From an uncultured Acidimicrobiaceae bacterium (lineage in GTDB: Bacteria > Actinomycetota > Acidimicrobiia > Spongiisociales > ZC4RG35): 64,000 nucleotides of DNA. A program made the translations under genes and the position numbers. The notes below the pieces were generated by a model, which was not told the DNA's origin, ran no database searches, and saw only the letters and a program-made list of their open reading frames with translations. The stretch covers positions 1,910 through 65,909 of the forward strand of contig CAZLEQ010000011.1 in NCBI GenBank assembly GCA_964558575.1, read 5' to 3'. This document shows positions 4,622-63,812 of the stretch, piece by piece (position 1 is the stretch's first letter; each line of letters starts with the position of its first letter).

Positions 4622-5176
4622 TCATCGCCCCTCCCGTTTCACCATGATGTTGGGACTGAATGCAGGGGTGTCGCCAAGTCTGGTGAGGAGGGTGCGGAGG
4701 AGCCGGGCGAGGTCGTTTCTCTCGGACGACCCGAGCATCCCGACGATCTCGGCTTGAGTCTGGAGAAGAATGGCGAGAGCGTCTTCAGCGAGGTCTTTGC
4801 CCGCTGGGGTGAGATGTACGAGCACACCGCGCCCGTCTTGAGGGTTGGGTCGGCGTTCGACGAGCCCGGCTGCCTGGAGACGATTGAGCCGGACTGTCAT
4901 TCCCCCACTGGTCAGCAAGAGATCCTCAGCCAAAGCGGATGGGCTCGAGGGCCCTACGAGGTCGAGCTCGGTGAGGGTCTCTTGGTCGCCCCGATGGCTG
5001 AGGCCGTACGCGGCGGCAATGCGGTCCAGTCTCGCCTGGAGGAAGTGGGCGGCGCGTAGCACTCGGGTCCCTACTTCGAGTGGAGAGAAGTCCATGTCGG
5101 GTCGAGACGTCTTCCACCTCTCGAGGATGAGGTCAAGTCTGTCGCTGGTGCTCTGCTCGTCCATGTCGGAGATCAA
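4622..5176 (-). CDS. MarR family transcriptional regulator
   Basis: Winged-helix core LTSGGMTVRLNRLQAAGLVERRPNPQDGRGVLVHLTPAGKDL. Start is TTG 5176 or ATG 5164. Confidence 0.85.
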   Translation of the reverse strand: MISDMDEQSTSDRLDLILERWKTSRPDMDFSPLEVGTRVLRAAHFLQARLDRIAAAYGLSHRGDQETLTELDLVGPSSPSALAEDLLLTSGGMTVRLNRLQAAGLVERRPNPQDGRGVLVHLTPAGKDLAEDALAILLQTQAEIVGMLGSSERNDLARLLRTLLTRLGDTPAFSPNIMVKREGR

Positions 5177-5224
5177 CGTAAATGGTTGTTACCTATACTT
5201 CAAGTAATATATCGAGGGAAATAA

Positions 5225-5524
5225 CGAGAGAGAAGAGGTCTCGTTCCCGAGCCAGGGCGGACGGCCTCCGGTTACCGGGACTGTGACCCGGGTGTGGTCG
5301 CCCGACTCCAGTTCATTCGGGCTGGTCAAGCGATCGGGTTCACGCTCCGAGAACTGAGGGAGATCCTCGACATCAGGGGATCGGGGGCAGCACCCTGTCG
5401 CCACGGCGCGGAACTCGTCGACGACAGGATCCCGAAGTGTGGATCGACGGATCAGAGAAATCCGAGTGCCGTGTGCCCGCAGGATTCGGGTCGCTCAGCT
5501 CGCTTGCTCACAGGGCCAGGATGA
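5225..5524 (+). pseudogene. 5'-truncated (and probably 3'-frameshifted) MerR-family regulator remnant
   Basis: The frame opens right after TAA 5222-5224 and reads RERRGLVPEPGRTASGYRDCDPGVVARLQFIRAGQAIGFTLRELREILDIRGSGAAPC. That is the MerR wing and dimerisation helix, but the N-terminal HTH (about 25 aa) is missing. The tail loses family resemblance and overlaps the antiporter 3' end. Confidence 0.6.
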
Positions 5525-6434
5525 TGGCGACGGGATAGGCGCAGAGGAGCACCACACCCTCGATACGACGAAGCCGGTCCCCGCTCCAGGCGATTCCGCC
5601 CGCGAGAAGGGCTACCAGCACCATCACTATCAGGTCGGGCCGGAAGTCGGTGACGAGAGAACCGGAGCCCATGACGCCGGCTGCGCCGACGACGCCGAGC
5701 GAATTGAACACGTTCGACCCGAGGATGTTGCCGAGCACGAGGTCGCTACGTCCCCGACGGCCTGCGGCGATGACAGCGCCCAACTCGGGGAGACTCGTTC
5801 CCAGAGCCAGGATGGTGAGACCCACCACACCTTCGCTCATGCCGATCTCGAGGGCGATGCCTTCGGCTCCGATCACCATCGCCCGGGCACCGGCGAGGAG
5901 AACTCCGAGCGAGACGAGGGCGATCACCACGTCGCGCCATGCCGGCCCGGTCGCCGCGTCCTCGACTGCCTCGGTCGTGTCGTCTCGCTTCGACCAGGTG
6001 ACGACTGCAATCCCGGCGAGGACCAACCCGAGGAGAAGTGCCGCTCCCTCGTAGACCCGGAGGACGCCGTCCCAGAGAAAGAGCGAGGCGAGGACGAACG
6101 AGGTGAGCATCAGGGCTCCCTCCTTCTTGATCACTCCGCTCTGGCCTCCGAAGGGGAAGATGATCACGGCCACCGCGAGGATCAGCGAGATGTTGGCGAT
6201 GTTCGAGCCAACCACGTTGCCCACTGCCAGATCGAGCCCGTTGGGCTGGTCGAGTGCGAGGACCGACACCATCATCTCGGGAAGCGAGGACCCGAAACCG
6301 ATGACCACGGCTCCGACGATCACCGGGGAGACGCCCCAGCGATGGGCGAGGTCCGCCGAAGAGAGGACCATCCGGTCGGCGGAGACCACGATCAGGGCGA
6401 TGCCTACGAGGAGGAGGAGGACGTCGACGATCAT
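5508..6434 (-). CDS. Ca2+/Na+ antiporter, CaCA family (YrbG-like)
   Basis: Two alpha-repeats (GFGSSLPEMMVS ... GNVVGSNIANI and ALGTSLPELGAVI ... GNILGSNVFN) and about 10 TM segments. ATG 6434 (MIVDVLLLLVG) preceded by GGAAGG. The ORF is open to 6575 but that leader is not protein-like. Confidence 0.85.
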   Translation of the reverse strand: MIVDVLLLLVGIALIVVSADRMVLSSADLAHRWGVSPVIVGAVVIGFGSSLPEMMVSVLALDQPNGLDLAVGNVVGSNIANISLILAVAVIIFPFGGQSGVIKKEGALMLTSFVLASLFLWDGVLRVYEGAALLLGLVLAGIAVVTWSKRDDTTEAVEDAATGPAWRDVVIALVSLGVLLAGARAMVIGAEGIALEIGMSEGVVGLTILALGTSLPELGAVIAAGRRGRSDLVLGNILGSNVFNSLGVVGAAGVMGSGSLVTDFRPDLIVMVLVALLAGGIAWSGDRLRRIEGVVLLCAYPVAIILAL

Positions 6435-23367: not shown

Positions 23368-23439
23368 TGGGGGGTGGTGTAACTGGTAACACGGCAGGTT
23401 TTGGTCCTGTTGTTGCGGGTTCGAGTCCTGCCCCCCCAG
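23368..23439 (+). tRNA. tRNA-Gln: tRNA-Gln (anticodon TTG)
   Basis: Hand-folded cloverleaf. Acceptor TGGGGGG/CCCCCCA, D arm GTGT/ACAC, anticodon arm GCAGG-TTTTGGT-CCTGT, T arm GCGGG-TTCGAGT-CCTGC, discriminator G. No encoded CCA. Confidence 0.9.
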
Positions 23440-23462
23440 CGCAGAGCACAGGAAGGCCCCAC

Positions 23463-24851
23463 TTGCCCACACATGTGATCATCCTCGCGGCCGGCGAGGG
23501 GAAGCGGATGAAGTCGAACCTTCCCAAGGTGGCTCATCGCGCCGCGGGCCGTCCTCTGGTCGACCATGTCATCGCGGCTGTCTCGACCCTGGCGCCGGCC
23601 TCGACGGTGGTCGTGGTCGGCCATGGGGCCGAACAGGTCCGTTCCATCCTCCCCGCAGGCGTCATCGACGCCCTCCAGGCCGACCAGCTCGGCACCGGCC
23701 ATGCCACACGGATAGGTCTGGAGGCACTGGGCCCTCTCGACCCCGATGACACGGTGATGATCCTGTACGGGGACACCCCGCTGCTCACTCCCGGGCTTCT
23801 CGAGAGGCTGGCCGAACTCGACGAGGGCGAGAGTGCCCGTCTCATCTCCTCCCGCCTGGACGACCCGTCAGGCTACGGACGCGTGGTTCGAGACGAATCA
23901 GGTCAGATCACAGGCATCGTCGAGGATCGCGACTGCTCACCTGTCCAGCTGGAGATAGACGAGGTGAACGCCGGCATCTACGCGGTGAAGGCGGGACGTC
24001 TCGCCGAGTCGCTGCAACGGGTGACCAACGACAACGATCAGGGCGAGTACTACCTGACCGATGTAATCGGCATCCTGGTGACCGAAGGTGACAGACTGTC
24101 AACGGTCGAGGCGTCGCCCGAGGAGGTGATGGGTATCAACTCGCAGGATCAACTCGCCGTAGCCCGCAAGGAACTGCGCCTGCGGATCAACCAGAGGTTG
24201 ATGGAGTCGGGCGTCGAGATCATCGATCCCGAGCGCACCTACATCGACGAGGCTGTGACGCTGGCGCCCGGGGTGCTCATCTACCCGGGCACACATCTCG
24301 AGGGTGCCACTGCCGTCGGTGCCCGATCCGAGATCGGCCCCGACGTCTTTGCTGTCGATTCGACCATCGGCGAGGACTCGAAGGTCTGGTATGCGGTGTT
24401 ACGTGGTGCGCAGATCGGCGACGGGTGCGAGGTGGGGCCCTACGCCTCGTTGCGTCAGGGAACCGTTCTCGAAGACGGCTCGAAGATCGGGACGTTCGTC
24501 GAGACCAAGAACACGGTCATGGGCGAGGGGGCGAAGGCCAACCACCTCGCCTACCTCGGCGATGCCGACGTAGGAGCTCGAGCCAACATCGGTGCGGGTG
24601 TCGTCACCGTGAACTACGACGGAGTCAAGAAGTCGCGGACCGAGATCGGCGAAGATGCCTTCATCGGATCGGACACCATGCTCGTCGCTCCGGTCAGAGT
24701 GGGCGATCGGGCCAGCACCGGGGCCGGGTCGGTGATCACCACCGACGTGAACGAAGACGCCCTGGCAATCGAGCGATCTGATCAAAGGGAAATACCCGGC
24801 TACGCTCAAAAGCGCGCCGCGCGCAAGGCAGCCGAAGACGCAGAGGACTGA
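23463..24851 (+). CDS. glmU: bifunctional GlcNAc-1-P uridylyltransferase / GlcN-1-P acetyltransferase
   Basis: VIILAAGEGKRMKSNLPKV... followed by C-terminal left-handed beta-helix hexapeptide repeats. TTG 23463 lies 7 nt after GGAAGG. The ORF-track start 23367 would overlap the tRNA. Confidence 0.9.
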   Translation: MPTHVIILAAGEGKRMKSNLPKVAHRAAGRPLVDHVIAAVSTLAPASTVVVVGHGAEQVRSILPAGVIDALQADQLGTGHATRIGLEALGPLDPDDTVMILYGDTPLLTPGLLERLAELDEGESARLISSRLDDPSGYGRVVRDESGQITGIVEDRDCSPVQLEIDEVNAGIYAVKAGRLAESLQRVTNDNDQGEYYLTDVIGILVTEGDRLSTVEASPEEVMGINSQDQLAVARKELRLRINQRLMESGVEIIDPERTYIDEAVTLAPGVLIYPGTHLEGATAVGARSEIGPDVFAVDSTIGEDSKVWYAVLRGAQIGDGCEVGPYASLRQGTVLEDGSKIGTFVETKNTVMGEGAKANHLAYLGDADVGARANIGAGVVTVNYDGVKKSRTEIGEDAFIGSDTMLVAPVRVGDRASTGAGSVITTDVNEDALAIERSDQREIPGYAQKRAARKAAEDAED

Positions 24852-24852
24852 C

Positions 24853-25824
24853 GTGGACATCGTCTCCCGCAATCGAATGATGGTCTTCACCGGGGGCGCC
24901 AACGAGCCCCTGGCGGACGAAGTGGCCGACGTACTCGGGATCCAGCTGGGCAAGATCGAGCGATCCAGTTTCGCCAACGGCGAGATCTACGTGCGGCCCG
25001 TGGAGAGCGTGCGCGGTGCCGACTGCTTCGTGATCCAGAGCCACTGTGCCCCGGTCAACGACAACATCATGGAGCAGTTGATCACGATCGACGCGTTGCG
25101 TCGGGCATCGGCACGTCGCATCACCGCCGTCATCCCCTTCCTCGGCTACTCACGCCAGGACAAGAAGGTCATGCCGCGGGAGCCGATCACCGCCCGACTC
25201 GTGGCCGATCTCTTCATGAAGGCAGGGGCAGACCGGCTGGTGTCGGTCGATCTGCACACGGGACAGCTCCAGGGCTTCATCTCCAAGCCCTGGGATTCCC
25301 TCACCGCCCTCCCGATCATCACCGACTACTTGAGCGGGAGGCTCAACGGCAAGACCACTGTCCTGTCTCCCGATGCCGGTGGCGTGAAGCGAGCCGAGCG
25401 GTATGCCCGTCACCTGGGCGCATCCGTCGCCTTCGTCTACAAGCGTCGCGAGCCAGACGAGCACAACGTGTCCGAGGCCCTGTCGATGGCGGGAAAGGTG
25501 ACCGACCGCCATGTGGTCATCGTCGACGACATGATCGACACCGCCGGGACCGTGTGCAACGCCGCCGAGATGGTCAAGGAGTTCGGCGCCAAGAGCGTTC
25601 GGATCGCCGCCACTCACGGCATCTTCTCCGATCCTGCCCTCGATCGGATCAAGAACGCGCCGATCGAAGAGGTGATCGTCACCAACACCCTCCCGGTCAG
25701 CAGTGACATCCAGGCCCTGGACAACGTCCAGGTGCTCTCCATCGCCCCGATCCTGGCCGAGACGCTCCAGGCGATCTTCATGGACTCCTCGGTGTCGGAG
25801 ATCTTCCTCGGAGAGAACGCCTAG
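24853..25824 (+). CDS. prs: ribose-phosphate pyrophosphokinase
   Basis: FANGEIYVRPVESVRGADCFVIQS...YSRQDKK...VIVDDMIDTAGT (PRPP-binding loop). Confidence 0.92.
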   Translation: MDIVSRNRMMVFTGGANEPLADEVADVLGIQLGKIERSSFANGEIYVRPVESVRGADCFVIQSHCAPVNDNIMEQLITIDALRRASARRITAVIPFLGYSRQDKKVMPREPITARLVADLFMKAGADRLVSVDLHTGQLQGFISKPWDSLTALPIITDYLSGRLNGKTTVLSPDAGGVKRAERYARHLGASVAFVYKRREPDEHNVSEALSMAGKVTDRHVVIVDDMIDTAGTVCNAAEMVKEFGAKSVRIAATHGIFSDPALDRIKNAPIEEVIVTNTLPVSSDIQALDNVQVLSIAPILAETLQAIFMDSSVSEIFLGENA

Positions 25825-56937: not shown

Positions 56938-57041
56938 GGTCCGGCGCGTCTGGTCATCACCTGGCCATTCTGACATCAGTCCCGGACATCCGGTGACCGG
57001 GAATCGAAGGAAGTGTCGAAGGTGCGCTAGGGCAGCAGCCC

Positions 57042-57329
57042 TCAGTTGTCGCTGGACTGGATGAGCAGCAGGATTACCCCACCCAACACGGTGAGACCGA
57101 GTGCGAGCCAAATCAGGTTGCGTCGACGACGGGCTCCGGTCACATCGTCTGCCCAGTGCTTGGTCTTGTCCGCCATCCTCCGGGCACCCTCGGCTATCGC
57201 CTCGGAACCCTCAGCAAGCTTCTCGGAGCCGATTGCAGCTCCTTTCACCACTGGTGCGACCACGTCGTCCTTGACCTTCTCTCCGATATCCTTGGCGTAA
57301 CTGGACTTTGAGTTGGGCATTGAATCCAT
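57042..57329 (-). CDS. small tail-anchored membrane protein, unknown function
   Basis: Ala/Lys/Glu-rich helical N-part and a C-terminal TM segment LIWLALGLTVLGGVILLLI. Confidence 0.45.
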   Translation of the reverse strand: MDSMPNSKSSYAKDIGEKVKDDVVAPVVKGAAIGSEKLAEGSEAIAEGARRMADKTKHWADDVTGARRRRNLIWLALGLTVLGGVILLLIQSSDN

Positions 57330-57397
57330 CCTGTAAACGAGTTGACTCTTGGTACCCGTCCCATCTCGTTTCCAAACCCACGGTGGCTGCGCGGTAG

Positions 57398-57805
57398 TCA
57401 GGGCTCGACCTGAACCGCACCAACGGAACGAAATAGTGCCTCGGATGGAATATTCCCCTCGGTTATGTAGAGGACGACCGTCTCGTGACCATCGCCGGCA
57501 AGACGTTCGAGGGCGGTACTGGTGACGAGTCGGGCCAGCCCTTGGTTCTTGTGCGAAGGGAGGGTCATCACATAGCCGATGAATGGTCTCCCTTCAGCGC
57601 GCGAGACGAGCACTGCCGAGACGATCGTCCCGTCATCTTCCACAAGATAAGACCGATGGAGAAGCGCCGTGTTGTTTTCGAGGAACGACCTGACCTCATC
57701 GATCGCATCTTCGAGGGTCTCGTCGTCGTAGTCGATTGTGTCCCGGTATGCGTCGAGCATGAGCCTGGCGAGACCCTGGAGGTCATCTCGGGAAACCGAC
57801 CGCAA
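57398..57805 (-). CDS. GNAT family N-acetyltransferase
   Basis: Motif A: YVMTLPSHKNQGLARLVTSTALERL. Confidence 0.75.
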   Translation of the reverse strand: MRSVSRDDLQGLARLMLDAYRDTIDYDDETLEDAIDEVRSFLENNTALLHRSYLVEDDGTIVSAVLVSRAEGRPFIGYVMTLPSHKNQGLARLVTSTALERLAGDGHETVVLYITEGNIPSEALFRSVGAVQVEP

Positions 57806-57958
57806 CTGTGAGTCCCGGGAAGCTGTCCCAGGATCTACATGAGACAGGTCGATCTCATAGCGAAGTTTCCGTGGGCTCTGAGATATCGTCGTATCGGCTT
57901 CCTGACTGTCGTTCTGACCGGGTCAGAGAGTAATCGTCGGAAAGGATGGGGTGGCTCG

Positions 57959-58249
57959 ATGAGCCAGAAAACTGATCTGCCCGATATTCAGTCTTCCAAG
58001 GTCACGGAGCGAATCTACGCCACCGCCTTCAAGTTGCTCGAGCAGCATCCAGAGGGTCTGCGCTGGACGGACCTGCGAACCAAGATCGAGGAGACAGATC
58101 CCGACTTCCACCCGAAAACGGTCAACGGATGTGTCTGGAAACTCGTCGAGAGATATCCCGACAGGGTCTACAAACCATCCAAGGGGCTCTTCCGTTTGCT
58201 GGAACATGAGTCCGACACCAGCACTCAGATGTCTGCCCCCGACCATTGA
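57959..58249 (+). CDS. hypothetical small protein, winged-helix-like
   Basis: AAAGGATGGGG before ATG 57959. RIYATAFKLLEQHPEGLRWTDLRTKIEE...VNGCVWKL resembles Mrr_N-like winged helices. Lies in the lower-GC patch. Weak call. Confidence 0.4.
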   Translation: MSQKTDLPDIQSSKVTERIYATAFKLLEQHPEGLRWTDLRTKIEETDPDFHPKTVNGCVWKLVERYPDRVYKPSKGLFRLLEHESDTSTQMSAPDH

Positions 58250-58308
58250 CACGATCCCAGACTTGCCGAACTGCGTGGGATCGAGTGGGCTAGCTTTGTG
58301 ACCTGCCC

Positions 58309-58575
58309 ATGCATGACATCGAGATCACCTATTGCGTTCCGTGAAACTATCTAGACCGCGCCGTGAGCGCGGCCGATGACATCCTCTCCCGATATCAGCA
58401 CATCGTGCGATCTCTCTCGCTCAGCACAGGCTCCAAGGGCGTGTTCGATGTCAGGGTGGATGGGAACCTGATCTACTCCAAAGCCGAGACTGGAAGACAT
58501 GCCGAACCTGGCGAGGTGCTCGACCACTTCGTGGAGAAGTACGGTCAAGGAGTGACGCTCTACGGCCAGGAATAG
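58309..58575 (+). CDS. SelW/Rdx-family protein, candidate selenoprotein (in-frame TGA 58342-58344 read as Sec)
   Basis: ATG 58309 is in frame with track ORF 58363..58575. The read-through product is MHDIEITYCVPUNYLDRAVSAADDIL...GVFDVRVDGNLIYSKAETGRHAEPGEV, with the Rdx CxxU redox motif at the canonical N-terminal position. A hairpin follows the TGA. Confidence 0.6.
58354..58374 (+). promoter_or_regulatory. candidate bacterial SECIS hairpin
   Basis: Stem CCGCGC (58356-61) / GCGCGG (58367-72) with loop CGUGA. The stem starts 11 nt after the UGA and the apical loop lies 18-22 nt after it. Confidence 0.45.
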
Positions 58576-59319: not shown

Positions 59320-60136
59320 ATGGAAACCGCTGATCGGCCGATGGTCGCGTTCGTCACCGGGGCAAGCCGCGGTATTGACCGCCTGCTCGCTTTGTCTCTT
59401 GCCGATGCTGGTGCAACCGTCGCTGGTTTTGCCAGGTCGAGCGCAGCGTTGGACCGGCTCGCAGAGGAGGCTGGCACTGGATCGAGGCTCCATGCGAGAT
59501 CTGTGGATGTGACGAGTCCCGTCGATGTGCGGTCTGCCTTTGAGCGGGCGACGATCGAGGTTGGTCCTCCCGACTTGTTGATCACGTGTGCCGGCGGCGC
59601 CTCCGCGCTCGGTCCTATCTCGACCATTGATCCGGACGACTGGTGGCGCGATGTGACGACAGACCTGCGTGGCACCATGCTGTGTGTCCAGGCCGTCTTG
59701 GATCCGATGCTGGGGGCGGGTTCGGGCCACATCATCACGGTCTACGGCAACCTCGGGGACCACGGAGGAGAGCACGTTTCGGCATTCGCTGCTGGAAAGG
59801 CGGGTCGCCAGGTTTACTGAGACTCTGGCCAACGAACTCGGTGACAGCGGTGTCGTCGCCCTCACCATCCATCCTGGTTTTGTCCGTACTCCCATGACCG
59901 AGCGGCTGGCATGGAGTGTAGAGGGACGGCTTTGGCTCCCGGACTTCGAGTCCCATGCCGAGCAGCATTGGGGAGATGGGGCTTCAGCCATCGCCTTGGT
60001 GAAACGGATAGTCGCCGGTGAAGCCGATGAACTCGCCGGGCGGGTTGTGCATGCCGGTGACGACTTCGAACAGCTGAGCCAGCGCGTCCGCACCGACGAG
60101 GACTTGCGGCGTCTTCGGCTTCGTTTCGACGGCTGA
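59320..60136 (+). pseudogene. SDR family oxidoreductase disrupted by a frameshift
   Basis: ORF 59320..59820 (VAFVTGASRGID...SAFAAGKAG) and ORF 59669..60136 (...VARFTETLANELGDSGVVALTIHPGFVRTPMT) join into one SDR if one G is removed from the G-run near 59799-59804. The catalytic YxxxK reads FAAGK. Confidence 0.6.
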
Positions 60137-60631
60137 CAATCCCGGCTGGCTGATCACCGACAGACCGGGCTCTTCCGGGCCCGGGTGTCGATGGAACTGG
60201 GCGGCCGAGCGCGCCCATAACGTGCGTACGAGCGGTTCGTCCGGTGAGCCCGAGGCGGAGAGGGATGGTTGTGGCCTCTTCTTGATCAGGTGACGTAGTT
60301 CGGCCTCGACCTGTTGCATCAGCGCCATAGCGGTGATCGATTTGCTCAACGAGGCGATGAACAGCGGGGTGGCGGCGGTCATCGCAATCCCAGGGCTGGC
60401 CTCACCCAGCTCCAAAGCGAGCACGATCTCGCCGTCGTGGACGATCGCCGTGGCCAGGCCGGGCACGCCGACCTCGGACAAGCGCATCTCGAGATACCTC
60501 TCGACCTCATCGACAGCCGAATCCGTGAAAGGAGGGAGGGAGTCCTGTTGGGCAGCGCCAGAAGCGGAGAATGCGATGAGGCCGGCCAGGTGAGGGAGAG
60601 ATCGAAGCCAGTGATGGGCAGGTGAGATCAC
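59984..60631 (-). pseudogene. truncated beta-lactamase / serine-hydrolase-family remnant
   Basis: Only the first 110 or so codons (about 60300-60631) look like the family (GLATAIVHDGEIV..., SxxK as FIASLSKSITAMAL). The rest is not protein-like and overlaps the SDR remnant. Confidence 0.5.
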
Positions 60632-60902: not shown

Positions 60903-63530
60903 CTACGCCGGGGAGACTGGGACCTCGATGCCAACCGGGGAGTCGGTGACACGGGCCGCCGGCTTCTTCCAACCAATCTCGACCCCATCCGCTCTGGTAC
61001 CCCAGTCTTGTTTCCGCAGCGTCAACAAGGCCCATAGACGCAATGGGGTCAACAACAAGATGTGAATGATCCCGTACAAAGGTGAGAGCAGGAACGTCAA
61101 GAACGACACATCGACATGTCGTGCCGACCTGACGTACGACATCAACGTTATGAAGCCAAGGTAGTAATAGCCGACAAACTGGCCGGCCATGATCGGTCGG
61201 ACCACGATTGCCATCATGATCGCTGCCGAGAAGAACAGCCATAACCCGAGTTCCGAAACGGCCAGGGCGGTGACTCTGGCTCTCTTCTGATGGAATATCG
61301 CCCACACGGTCTCCCTGAAGAACGACCGGTTCCACCGAAGCTGCTGCCTGAGGAAGTGGCTGAGTCTGTCAGGTGCCAATGTCATCGCCTTGGCGGTCTC
61401 TTGGAAGACGACACGTCCATGCCTCAAGGCGTAATTGGTCAGTCTCCTGTCGTCCCCGTAAGAGACCTCGACCCCCAAGAACCGTTGTGACACGTAGTCA
61501 TCTAGGTAGCGTCGAACAATGCTGGCTCGATACAAGGTGATGATTCCAGTGGCGCAGAGCATCGAGTCCAGAACCGAGTACGCCGCTCGCTCGTAGGTGA
61601 ATGCGTTGGAGTACCTCAGATCGATCAAACGCGTCAGCAGGTTCTTCTTCGCGTTGAGGGCACGAACGTTCCCACAGACCGCACTCACTTCGGAGTCGAA
61701 GAAGGATCGCAAACCCTCATCGATGCATGCACGATCGAGGACCGTATCGGAATCCACAGTCACGAACACGTCTGCCTTGGATCGAGCGAACGCCCACGCC
61801 TGAGCGTGCCGTTTCCCCCGGTTCTCTCTAAACCTGTGCACCCGGCCGCCGTGGTTCTTCAGGTGCCGCGCGGCAATAGCGATACACGTAGCATCATCAC
61901 TCCCGTCGTCCACCACCCATATCTCCTGAGGGATCCTGGTCTGGTTCAGAAGGGATCGCAGGCACTCCCTGAACACCAGAGGATCCTCGTTATAGACAGG
62001 AACGAATACGGCGACGCTCATATCGGGTGCCGGGTCGAACCAGGGCTCATAACGCGAAGCCAGAACCATCTTGAGCAACAAGTAGGAGATGGCAAGCATC
62101 CCGTAAACCCCGATGACGATGACACCCGCACCTGCTTTGGCGTTCCACCAGAACACCAAGGCAATCGCGATGAGGAAGAAGGGCCACGCCCTTGCCTGTC
62201 TTCTGTCCCTGCCAAGTTTGACAACCTCTCCCGCGGTCTCCACGGCCTGCCGCTTGGTCTCCTTCTGGGCCTCACGACTGTCTGTTCGGTACCCCGGGCC
62301 AAACGTGTCCGTCCAGATCACCGTGGAGAACAGCCAGAGCGCGCATCCCAGTAGGAGCATCGGCGACAGTCGGGAGATCAATAGATACGCTCTCTCGAAG
62401 TCACCCAGCCAGACGCCGACAAGAGCTCCGAGGGGCAGGCCCGCCCATCCGATGGCCCGGGCAGCCGATATCACTCTTCCCAACATCGCCTCCCCCGCAT
62501 AGACCTGACGGATGGTGACGAGAGGGACGTTCATCACCGAGATGCCCGCCATGAAGAGGGCGAGAAGCGCCATGGCCCGTGCGCCGTAGGTACTCACCGT
62601 CACGATCAGTAGGGAGACACCCGACATCGCCAGTCCCGCGATCATCGCTCGTCCGAGTCCGATTGCTCTGGACACAAGGGGGGCGACCAGAGCACCGATG
62701 ACTCCGCCCGCTCCCATGAAGAAGAGCAGTACGGCTATCTGGAATCCACTCTCGGCTTCGAGCACCACGATGGCCAGCACCACAAAGGTTGCTTCGATGA
62801 ACCCGATCACGAAGTTGGGGACGGCTGCGGTGACGGTGGAGATGCGCAGCCTGGGCTCGTTCCAGAGATGATGTATCCCGGTCTTGAACCCGGCGAGAAA
62901 CGACCCGCGCTCGGCGGCGGCGTCAGCGTGGCGGGCAACCCGGCCAACGTTCCTCAGAGACCACGCAGAGATCAGGAAGACGACGCCGTTGATGTAGAGG
63001 CCGACTGCGGGGCCGGCGAAGATGAGGGCTGTCACCCCTCCGACCAAGGGACCGAGGGCGGTGGTGACCTGGACGGAGACGGCAACGAAAGAGTTCGCGT
63101 CGGACAACCGGTCTTTGGGAACCAGCGAGGGGATCATTGTGTAGACGGCGGAGTCGAACAGCGTCGTAAAGGAGCCGATCACGAACGCCATGGCGAATAC
63201 GGTGCCGATCCCGTAGGAACCGACTTCGGCGGCCAGGTAGAACAAGGCGCACGCCCGGAGCAGGTTGGTGACGATCATCACCAGGCGGAGATTGATTCTG
63301 TCGAGCAGGATTCCCCCGAGCAGCCCGATGATCAGTGCGGGTGCCGTCTGCAGGGCGTAGCTGATGGCGAAGTCGAGGGTTCTCTCCGATCCGGCTGCGG
63401 CCTGGATGTGCATGACCAGGAGCGGGACTGTTATCACGGCGAAGTACGCGCCTATGAGGCTGGTCGTCTGAGCGATCCATAGCGCCATGTAGCGCGAGCC
63501 AAGGGACCGCATCGAGGCCAGAACGTGCAC
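60903..63530 (-). CDS. fusion protein: N-terminal MFS transporter (EntS/MFS_3-like) + C-terminal HasA/NodC-type processive GT2 glycan synthase
   Basis: One uninterrupted frame. GAAGGAG lies 8 nt before GTG 63530. The MFS half has about 12 TM segments. The GT2 half has VPVYNEDP, VVDDGSDD, GKRHAQAWAFARSKADVFVTVDSDT, NLLTRLIDLRYSNAF, GDDRRLTNYA, QQLRWNRSFFRE and FLLSPLYG...RKQDWGTR. GC is visibly lower than the window average. Confidence 0.8.
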   Translation of the reverse strand: MHVLASMRSLGSRYMALWIAQTTSLIGAYFAVITVPLLVMHIQAAAGSERTLDFAISYALQTAPALIIGLLGGILLDRINLRLVMIVTNLLRACALFYLAAEVGSYGIGTVFAMAFVIGSFTTLFDSAVYTMIPSLVPKDRLSDANSFVAVSVQVTTALGPLVGGVTALIFAGPAVGLYINGVVFLISAWSLRNVGRVARHADAAAERGSFLAGFKTGIHHLWNEPRLRISTVTAAVPNFVIGFIEATFVVLAIVVLEAESGFQIAVLLFFMGAGGVIGALVAPLVSRAIGLGRAMIAGLAMSGVSLLIVTVSTYGARAMALLALFMAGISVMNVPLVTIRQVYAGEAMLGRVISAARAIGWAGLPLGALVGVWLGDFERAYLLISRLSPMLLLGCALWLFSTVIWTDTFGPGYRTDSREAQKETKRQAVETAGEVVKLGRDRRQARAWPFFLIAIALVFWWNAKAGAGVIVIGVYGMLAISYLLLKMVLASRYEPWFDPAPDMSVAVFVPVYNEDPLVFRECLRSLLNQTRIPQEIWVVDDGSDDATCIAIAARHLKNHGGRVHRFRENRGKRHAQAWAFARSKADVFVTVDSDTVLDRACIDEGLRSFFDSEVSAVCGNVRALNAKKNLLTRLIDLRYSNAFTYERAAYSVLDSMLCATGIITLYRASIVRRYLDDYVSQRFLGVEVSYGDDRRLTNYALRHGRVVFQETAKAMTLAPDRLSHFLRQQLRWNRSFFRETVWAIFHQKRARVTALAVSELGLWLFFSAAIMMAIVVRPIMAGQFVGYYYLGFITLMSYVRSARHVDVSFLTFLLSPLYGIIHILLLTPLRLWALLTLRKQDWGTRADGVEIGWKKPAARVTDSPVGIEVPVSPA

Positions 63531-63812
63531 GGAGTTGTCTCCTTCTGTCCTACAAGTTCTTAGATTTCGGTCGCCTAGGCCGGATCTGGAGAGATTCCGC
63601 AAATCATTTCCGGATTTCGTAACCGAAGATTCTCAGGGCTTACGCCGTCCTGTCCGATGCTCGGCATGTAGCGAGGAGCACAACTCGAACGACTGTTTAT
63701 TGGGGGTCGAGCGGGTGACCTGTGTGGATCTCGGTTGCACGGAACAGACCAGGCCTATTTCGGTGGTTCCGACTGGTTTCGCTTATGCCGAGCGACGGTT
63801 CTGTTCGAATAG

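Follow-up and report, generated by a model that had tools for sequence, protein, structure and literature searches.

Does a single gene of an uncultured actinobacterium encode both a membrane transporter and a processive glycan synthase, and, if so, do the two halves form one machine? The question is raised by a gene in a 64-kb stretch of contig CAZLEQ010000011.1 (assembly GCA_964558575.1), the whole of which is called the window below. An earlier note on this DNA had described one reading frame of about 875 codons that joins a complete major facilitator superfamily (MFS) transporter to a complete synthase of the hyaluronan synthase (HAS)/NodC group. The open reading frames (ORFs), the Pfam domains and independent Logan assemblies bear this out, and the fusion is a genuine single gene of this organism. 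We favor, with a probability of about 0.6, a recent, lineage-specific fusion of two autonomous membrane modules, which is tolerated since the topology of the halves fits. This reading is founded on what could be shown: a single ORF, domains of established identity, two intact halves whose topologies are compatible, a fusion found only once, and two gene families with no conserved linkage to each other.

One reading frame for two membrane proteins

In the ORF listing of the window, a single frame is open from 60903 to 63602 on the minus strand. The favored start is GTG 63530, which gives a product of 875 aa and roughly 95 kDa (P0001). From this start, the N-terminus of P0001 aligns residue for residue with those of standalone MFS relatives.

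60903..63530, minus strand: whole fusion gene, 875 codons plus the stop at 60903-60905, start GTG at 63530-63528
63538..63544, minus strand: Shine-Dalgarno-like AAGGAGA, 7 nt 5' of the GTG start and inside the 11-mer CAGAAGGAGAC (read from the sequence)

The four profiles proposed earlier as a check (MFS_1, MFS_3, Chitin_synth_2 and Glyco_tranf_2_3) all score above their Pfam gathering values. The N-terminal half matches MFS_1 with 77.0 bits (gathering score 33.4) and MFS_3 with 49.6 bits (gathering score 27), and the C-terminal half matches Glycos_transf_2, Glyco_tranf_2_3, Glyco_trans_2_3 and Chitin_synth_2, each above the gathering score.

Three Logan assemblies, derived from different SRA runs, carry the gene and specify a P0001 that is identical over all 875 aa. 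Aligned with the window over up to 10.5 kb, they show 99.93-99.97% DNA identity and zero gaps. Only two differences fall within the gene, at 62055 and 62073, and both are synonymous changes at third codon positions (Ser TCG>TCT and Leu CTC>CTA). One of these assemblies, L001, differs from the window at seven single bases; five of them lie within the 660-nt pseudogene zone 59538-60197 and the other two in the 2.6-kb fusion gene. Because independent assemblies agree without gaps and the in-gene differences are synonymous, a missed stop or frameshift at the junction is very unlikely.

The synthase half

The C-terminal half contains the following features. TM stands for transmembrane.

62073..62171, minus strand: pair of TM helices at the N-terminus of the synthase (residues 454-486), also present in HasA and chlorovirus HAS; the alignment with HasA begins here
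61245..62072, minus strand: cytoplasmic GT-A catalytic domain, residues 487-762 (Pfam, alignments and family invariants)
61899-61916, minus strand: VVDDGS, motif of the GT-A domain
61800-61817, minus strand: GKRHAQ, motif of the GT-A domain
61743-61757, minus strand: VDSDT, motif of the GT-A domain
61428-61457, minus strand: GDDRRLTNYA, motif of the GT-A domain
61311-61346, minus strand: QQLRWNRSFFRE, motif of the GT-A domain
60906..61244, minus strand: C-terminal membrane/channel region, residues 763-875 (hydropathy and alignments)
61071-61094, minus strand: FLLSPLYG, in the C-terminal membrane region
60993-61007, minus strand: DWGTR of HAS/chitin synthase (CHS) type, residues 842-846, in the C-terminal membrane region

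All motifs quoted in the earlier note are present (GKRHAQ, VDSDT, GDDRRLTNYA, QQLRWNRSFFRE, FLLSPLYG and DWGTR). The signatures of processive family 2 glycosyltransferases (GT2), namely D, DxD, (G/E)DR and QxxRW, occur as DDGS, DSDT, GDDRR and QQLRW and are invariant in the family alignment. The flanking TM helices (an N-terminal pair and a C-terminal bundle) together with the WGTR-type motif place the half in the HAS/NodC/chitin synthase group. It retains 69 of the 70 near-invariant columns of its family, in which the median is 97.1%, and its glycosyltransferase core is modeled by AlphaFold2 (AF2) with a pLDDT of 80-96.

A sequence search of the PDB returned only two strong matches, to chlorovirus hyaluronan synthase (1.7e-32) and Xenopus HAS1 (2e-31), and the HAS alignments cover the half from its first two TM helices through WGTR. 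When the full protein model was submitted to Foldseek, the first 13 matches were HAS structures, followed by MFS transporters. The best NCBIfam model is NodC (TIGR04242) with 218 bits, which is below its equivalog cutoff of 550. PgaC/IcaA (TIGR03937) reaches 82 bits against a cutoff of 422, and CelA 26 bits. In tblastn searches of annotated plasmids, HasA of the Bacillus cereus/anthracis pXO1 type was matched at 42.5% identity (277 bits), NodC at 32-36% (approximately 155 bits) and PgaC at approximately 25% (approximately 65 bits). BLASTP gave 41% identity with Bacillus HasA over 419 aa (2e-104) and 33% with NodC (2e-56). The claim that the synthase is nearer to HasA than to the PgaC or BcsA type thus agrees with both the identities (41% for HasA, 33% for NodC and about 25% for PgaC) and the best PDB and fold matches, which are HAS. 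Judged by these comparisons, the synthase half stands nearer to HasA than it does to NodC, PgaC or BcsA.

HasA, known from Streptococcus and from the hasACB genes of B. cereus G9241 and the B. anthracis pXO1 type, is collinear with the synthase half throughout, from the two TM helices at the N-terminus to WGT near the C-terminus. The two share the same versions of the motifs GDDRxLTNYA, RWNxSFFRE, FLLxPLYG and WGT, and the synthase unit is of similar size, about 430 aa. HasA is, however, a standalone protein encoded with hasB (UDP-glucose dehydrogenase) and hasC, whereas the synthase half bears an N-terminal 12-TM MFS module, has no hasB or hasC nearby and falls in a different, largely actinobacterial clade. 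The hasACB operon of the pXO1-type plasmid family makes a hyaluronic acid capsule (PMC6105005). NodC shares the GT2 subgroup and the topology with the synthase half but has GEDRHLT, RWARS and DWLSRG in place of its motifs and lacks WGTR.

The transporter half

62301..63530, minus strand: MFS transporter module, residues 1-410, with 12 predicted TM helices (Pfam, NCBIfam, hydropathy, AF2, Foldseek and alignment)
63285-63317, minus strand: motif-A-like GGILLDRINLR, residues 72-82, within the MFS module
62289-62318, minus strand: IWTDTFGPGY, residues 405-414, where homology to standalone MFS relatives ends in the alignment

Hydropathy predicts 6+6 helices on either side of a central K/R-rich loop of 46 aa, the arrangement of a 12-TM MFS transporter. 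All 32 positions conserved in the broad family are retained, and the AF2 pLDDT is mostly 80-96. The fold matches found by Foldseek are NorA, VMAT and MdfA, with a target-normalised TM-score of up to 0.82. The best NCBIfam subfamily is TIGR00900 'H+ antiporter' with 131 bits, below its cutoff of 319.6, and the equivalog cutoffs of EntS (61.7 against 324), Tap (20.2 against 625) and Mef(B) (22.7 against 800) are missed. The half therefore has the 12-TM MFS fold in common with the MFS_3/DHA3 exporters (EntS, Mef and Tap; subfamily TIGR00900) but lies under every equivalog cutoff. Its close relatives are standalone proteins of 446-497 aa from Acidimicrobiia-type metagenome-assembled genomes (MAGs), with 55-69% identity.

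Additions of other kinds occur at the C-terminus of this MFS family. Three relatives of 545-614 aa (P0007, P0008 and P0012) carry a C-terminal cNMP-binding domain (PF00027), and a fourth of 596 aa (P0004) has a weak C-terminal match to MOSC; the C-terminus of the family therefore tolerates fusions. In NCBIfam, the MFS part of PRK08633, an acyl-[ACP]--phospholipid O-acyltransferase with an N-terminal MFS domain, matches the MFS half with an E value of 6e-17. This protein, LplT-Aas, is a precedent for an N-terminal MFS module covalently attached to an enzyme that faces the cytoplasm. In LplT-Aas, the transporter brings the enzyme its substrate, and the pairing is conserved. In P0001, by contrast, the MFS module is attached to a polytopic processive synthase, and nowhere else is this pairing conserved.

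The synthase family is common, and the pairing was found once

Full-length P0001 is a singleton among 5.8 billion clusters. An exhaustive search with the GT2 half collected 15,346 proteins at E<=0.001. At E<1e-30 there were still 648 representative clusters, and the nearest relative is a standalone protein of 451 aa with 59% identity. The 120 best relatives in a word-index search have 45-60% identity, come from Actinomycetota and from Sedimenticola, Thermaerobacter and Elusimicrobiota MAGs, and many are labeled 'hyaluronan synthase' by JGI or NCBI. No MFS domain is present in these 120 proteins or in the 150 best relatives from the exhaustive search, which together make up about 270 of the closest. 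Among 185,579 species genomes (GTDB), 360 relatives of the GT2 half were confirmed. The counts of genome loci given here and below cover the best 80 of these 360, and the window's own genome is not among them. MAGs of Acidimicrobiia, Gaiella and Frankineae are among the 80, as are dozens of Streptomyces and Kitasatospora genomes with 44-46% identity, and a related MFS gene adjoins the synthase in none of the 80 loci. The earlier description of HasA-type synthases as phylogenetically sparse is contradicted at sequence level by the 648 clusters at E<1e-30 and by the 360 relatives, with their dozens of Streptomyces; both Streptomyces and Acidimicrobiia commonly have members of the family.

The MFS side gives the same picture. 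The closest database relatives (55-63% identity, from an Acidimicrobiia MAG) adjoin a Pup-proteasome cluster, and no GT2 gene was found near them. Five metagenomic relatives with 57-69% identity are all standalone. For four of them the contig includes the 3' end, and in these the stop lies 35-45 aa past IWTDTxGPxY and no synthase follows downstream. None of the plasmid records covers both halves, and a literature search on MFS-HAS fusions or actinobacterial HasA homologs returned nothing relevant. Because no relative of either half is fused to or adjoins the other, the fusion is lineage-specific, without a sampled two-gene precursor or a second occurrence. The MFS-synthase architecture appears to be unrecorded in everything searched.

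Other additions to the synthase family were seen: a C-terminal GGDEF-EAL (P0098, 965 aa), C-terminal TPR repeats (P0159, 821 aa) and an N-terminal signal peptide with a Pro/Ala-rich extracytoplasmic extension (P0183 and P0025, about 625 aa). The 395-aa N-terminal extension of P0135 was considered as a second transporter fusion and rejected; it consists of 3 TM helices and an extracytoplasmic domain of about 230 aa, has no Pfam match and is unlike the MFS half.

Linker, topology and proposed mechanism

62172..62300, minus strand: linker, residues 411-453, 10 of 43 residues K/R, predicted cytoplasmic, flexible and of low confidence in the model
62257..62267, minus strand: second exact copy of the 11-mer CAGAAGGAGAC, 13 nt 5' of the in-frame GTG codon 430 (62243-62241)

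By hydropathy, the order along the protein is 12 TM helices, the 43-aa linker with its 10 K/R, 2 TM helices, a cytosolic domain of 276 aa and the C-terminal TM helices. This predicted topology is compatible with the correct insertion of both modules. The AF2 model of the whole protein, made from a balanced alignment, has a mean pLDDT of 76.5 and a pTM of 0.54; the junction residues 407-424 are below pLDDT 50, and no confident packing between the domains is seen.

We propose the following mechanism, in which what each half does, what polymer is made and that the two modules act independently are all inferred. A 12-TM, MFS_3/DHA3-like exporter, probably working by proton antiport, would be joined to a HasA-like class I synthase by the linker, a flexible cytoplasmic stretch of about 40 aa that is rich in K/R. 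The C-terminus of the MFS half and the N-terminal tail of the synthase would both be cytoplasmic, and two TM helices would bring the chain back to the cytoplasmic GT-A domain. At the cytoplasmic face, the synthase half would polymerise a GlcNAc-containing beta-glycan from UDP-sugars, and the polymer would pass through the synthase's own TM channel, as in the solved hyaluronan synthases. From the gene neighborhoods of its relatives, the polymer is probably something other than classical hyaluronan. The MFS half would stay an autonomous exporter or serve as a mere extra membrane module.

The linker contains one sequence that may bear on the history of the synthase half. The 11-mer CAGAAGGAGAC occurs exactly twice in the 64 kb against 0.06 copies expected, and its first copy (63537-63547, minus strand) is at the ribosome-binding site of the gene. 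Initiation at GTG430 behind the second copy would yield a protein of 446 aa, the size of the standalone synthases. As a weak lead, the linker copy may be a relic or an internal initiation site of the synthase half, or it may be due to chance. The SD-like GAAGGAG is poorly specific for starts, with 3 of its 20 copies in the window preceding a long ORF, and the spacing of GTG430 from the SD-like motif is long, at 13-15 nt; independent translation of the synthase is unproven for these two reasons. The other internal starts considered in the linker (TTG 62215, TTG 62224 and GTG 62187) were rejected as out of frame, which leaves GTG430 as the only one in frame.

Independent or coupled halves

The alternative that survives best is a coupled machine, in which the MFS half would export a cytoplasmic oligosaccharide or primer, handle a substrate or by-product, or contribute to or gate the glycan conduit. 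The covalent fusion itself, the compatible topology and the intactness of both halves speak for it, as does the resemblance of the MFS half to the efflux-type DHA3/EntS families. A further argument comes from NodC, a 33% relative that depends on a separate NodIJ exporter encoded alongside it; some members of the group therefore need a dedicated exporter. Against this, relatives of neither half show fusion or adjacency to the other. The synthase retains all of its own TM and channel elements as well as the WGTR motif, solved HAS structures (8smn) hold the nascent polymer in the synthase's own channel, and the model, with its pTM of 0.54, places the domains in no confident contact. Coupling is accordingly unlikely. 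The functional ideas of the earlier note (a second conduit, export of a primer, or regulation of the synthase by the MFS module) likewise find no comparative support, since neither fusion nor adjacency recurs among the relatives. A recent joining that the lineage tolerates is the likeliest reading, ahead of a conserved machine with coupled parts.

Family and likely product of the synthase half

We built a neighbor-joining tree from 399 columns with 200 bootstraps. Its references were authentic sequences of Bacillus HasA, Rhizobium NodC, Escherichia coli PgaC and gecko HAS3, together with a provisional Streptococcus HasA sequence. The fusion groups with P0173, P0024, P0175 and P0176 at 94% bootstrap inside a large actinobacterial and environmental family. 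The assemblage on the HasA side stands apart from NodC and vertebrate HAS at 78%, and its internal and linking nodes reach 17-39%. The earlier note had regarded placement in a common actinobacterial clade unrelated to the HAS/NodC group as fatal to its reading. The half does fall in a common actinobacterial and environmental clade, but this clade lies within the HAS/NodC group. With its nearest members in this uncharacterized 'hyaluronan synthase'-labeled family, which includes the Streptomyces homologs, the GT2 half shares 52-60% identity and all invariant residues. The sampled members, in contrast, are standalone or carry other additions, and none carries an MFS module. On this phylogeny, the GT2 half is assigned to a common, HasA-related family rather than to a sparse HasA lineage.

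The genes beside these relatives offer some guidance on the product. A nucleotide-sugar dehydrogenase gene lies beside the synthase gene, immediately upstream, in about 58 of the 80 loci, which belong to Streptomyces and Kitasatospora, two Bacillota MAGs and Oerskovia (where it is downstream). In the Streptomyces and Kitasatospora loci (L030-L087), it occupies approximately positions 4850-5900 and is immediately upstream of the synthase in essentially all. The Streptomyces dehydrogenase scores 254 bits with the UDP-ManNAc dehydrogenase model, 186 with TviB and 41-169 with UDP-glucose dehydrogenase models. It passes TIGR03026 at 422 bits and is more like UDP-ManNAc/UDP-GlcNAc dehydrogenases than UDP-glucose dehydrogenase. 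We know of no characterized product of this conserved two-gene dehydrogenase-synthase module. Among other members of the family, P0175 has a bona fide WecB epimerase gene directly after it and GH26 and SLH genes around it, P0176 is followed by PMT_2 and LytR_cpsA_psr genes, and P0183 lies among cyclic di-GMP genes. In two Kitasatospora loci (L055 715-1299 and L037 908-1483), a NodB-like deacetylase with 42% identity to Rhizobium NodB is encoded about 4.5 kb upstream on the opposite strand. The family looks like a set of synthases for cell-surface glycans, and their polymer does not have to be hyaluronan; the conserved WecC-like dehydrogenase and WecB partners suggest a different polymer.

These neighborhoods bear on whether the synthase half is a true hyaluronan synthase, making an alternating GlcNAc-GlcA polymer like streptococcal or Bacillus HasA. 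HasA is its closest characterized relative (41% identity, with HasA-type GDDRxLTNYA, RWNxSFFRE and WGT), its best structural matches are HAS, and the source pipelines label the family 'hyaluronan synthase'. However, tblastn with Bacillus HasB and GalU matched no UDP-glucose dehydrogenase or galU gene, either in the window or in the 3.1 kb past its end that the three Logan assemblies (L001-L003) cover. This agrees with the earlier observation that no hasB-like gene is present in the window and extends it past the 64 kb. NodA and NodB homologs were likewise absent from the window and the 3.1 kb beyond. The clade is moreover large and separate, tied to HasA through internal nodes of 17-39% bootstrap, and its conserved partner is a WecC/TviB-like dehydrogenase, the other partners being the WecB epimerase, PMT_2 and LytR. 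With no hasB nearby and with relatives paired with WecC-like or WecB genes, classical hyaluronan is doubtful as the product.

Neighborhood, base composition and signs of decay

59320-60136, plus strand: short-chain dehydrogenase/reductase (SDR) pseudogene, divided between two frames by a frameshift; its first ORF (59320-59820) corresponds to profile positions 9-162 and its overlapping second ORF (59669-60136) to positions 155-190
59984-60631, minus strand: truncated beta-lactamase-family pseudogene, Pfam profile positions 4-71 of 329, directly downstream of the fusion gene

The fusion gene had been described as sitting among pseudogenes, and the split SDR and the truncated beta-lactamase-family ORF, whose 3' part overlaps the SDR remnant, confirm this. 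The stretch at 57-59 kb holds only short ORFs and has a GC content of 0.56. Its part from 57000 to 58500 (GC 0.56-0.57 against 0.64 for the window, ORFs of at most 136 aa) looks like eroded or foreign DNA. On the other side, upstream of the fusion and about 2 kb past the window end, L001 carries an Arr-type rifampin ADP-ribosyltransferase gene (919-1479, PF12120) and a SnoaL-like gene. The interval from these to the fusion gene holds several short ORFs that match no family. Elsewhere in the window, a tRNA-Gln(TTG) gene is followed by glmU and prs (23368-25824, plus strand); the best named match to this GlmU, from a MAG, has 88% identity. A repeat search for insertion scars found only short imperfect repeats near the gene, with copies 68-93% identical.

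The lower GC content noted earlier is real for the GT2 half, at 0.570 against 0.637 +/- 0.023 for the genes of the window, and the MFS half is at 0.628; neither the gene nor one of its halves is cleanly marked as foreign. GC at third codon positions (GC3) falls from about 0.84 to about 0.75 at codons 200-250 and is flat thereafter. At the junction, it is the first and second codon positions that change, so the step there stems from amino-acid composition. The step was considered as proof of a resident MFS gene joined to a foreign synthase and rejected, given the GC3 drop at codons of about 200-250; such an origin is a weak possibility only. The synthase P0175 of the closest clade has a GC content similar to that of the GT2 half. 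Base composition does not prove a chimeric origin.

Several observations weigh against the reading of two working modules. Around the fusion, at least 7 kb of the window (about 57-64 kb) is sparsely coding and includes the two confirmed pseudogenes, and the gene may itself be under relaxed selection. Of the 188 columns in which its six closest relatives are all identical, the MFS half keeps just 159, a shortfall that may come from divergence or from relaxed constraint. The 11-mer before GTG430 may mean that the synthase is also, or mainly, made alone. The two single-nucleotide differences within the gene are too few to demonstrate purifying selection, and a singleton is outside the reach of covariation and conservation testing. 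One could go further and regard the fusion as a by-product of deletion in a degenerating region, an early pseudogene in which at least one half is dead. The immediate neighbors are indeed pseudogenes, the 57-64 kb region is low in coding density and GC, and the architecture is a singleton. This outcome is nonetheless improbable. The 875 codons are uninterrupted, and the catalytic and family-invariant residues are retained (69/70 for GT2 and 32/32 for MFS as tallied). Both in-gene differences are synonymous, five of the seven in L001 fall in the adjoining pseudogenes, and a good SD sequence precedes the start. From its residues, the fusion gene itself shows no decay, and both halves look functional.

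Hardly credible at all is an artefact in which sequencing or assembly merged two separate genes: although every available copy is a short-read metagenome or MAG assembly and the 68.9-kb contig ends about 5 kb from the gene, the junction reads identically and without indels in four assemblies, which come from at least three SRA runs, and it has no long homopolymer.

Implications

Class I processive glycan synthases are thought to need no separate exporter. If P0001 is a single polypeptide in which both modules are active, its architecture would be unrecorded among such synthases and would provide a natural test of whether an attached secondary transporter alters the length, export or priming of the product. 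Should the halves prove mechanistically coupled, which we consider rather doubtful, P0001 would be the first transporter-fused class I glycan synthase and a 'Rosetta stone' for a partnership between synthase and exporter. The biological weight of the fusion is for now limited because it is a singleton in a decaying region, and it may be an evolutionary accident. The HasA-like synthases to which its C-terminal half belongs form a large uncharacterized family in Actinomycetota, including Streptomyces, and may be a more generally useful lead than the fusion itself.

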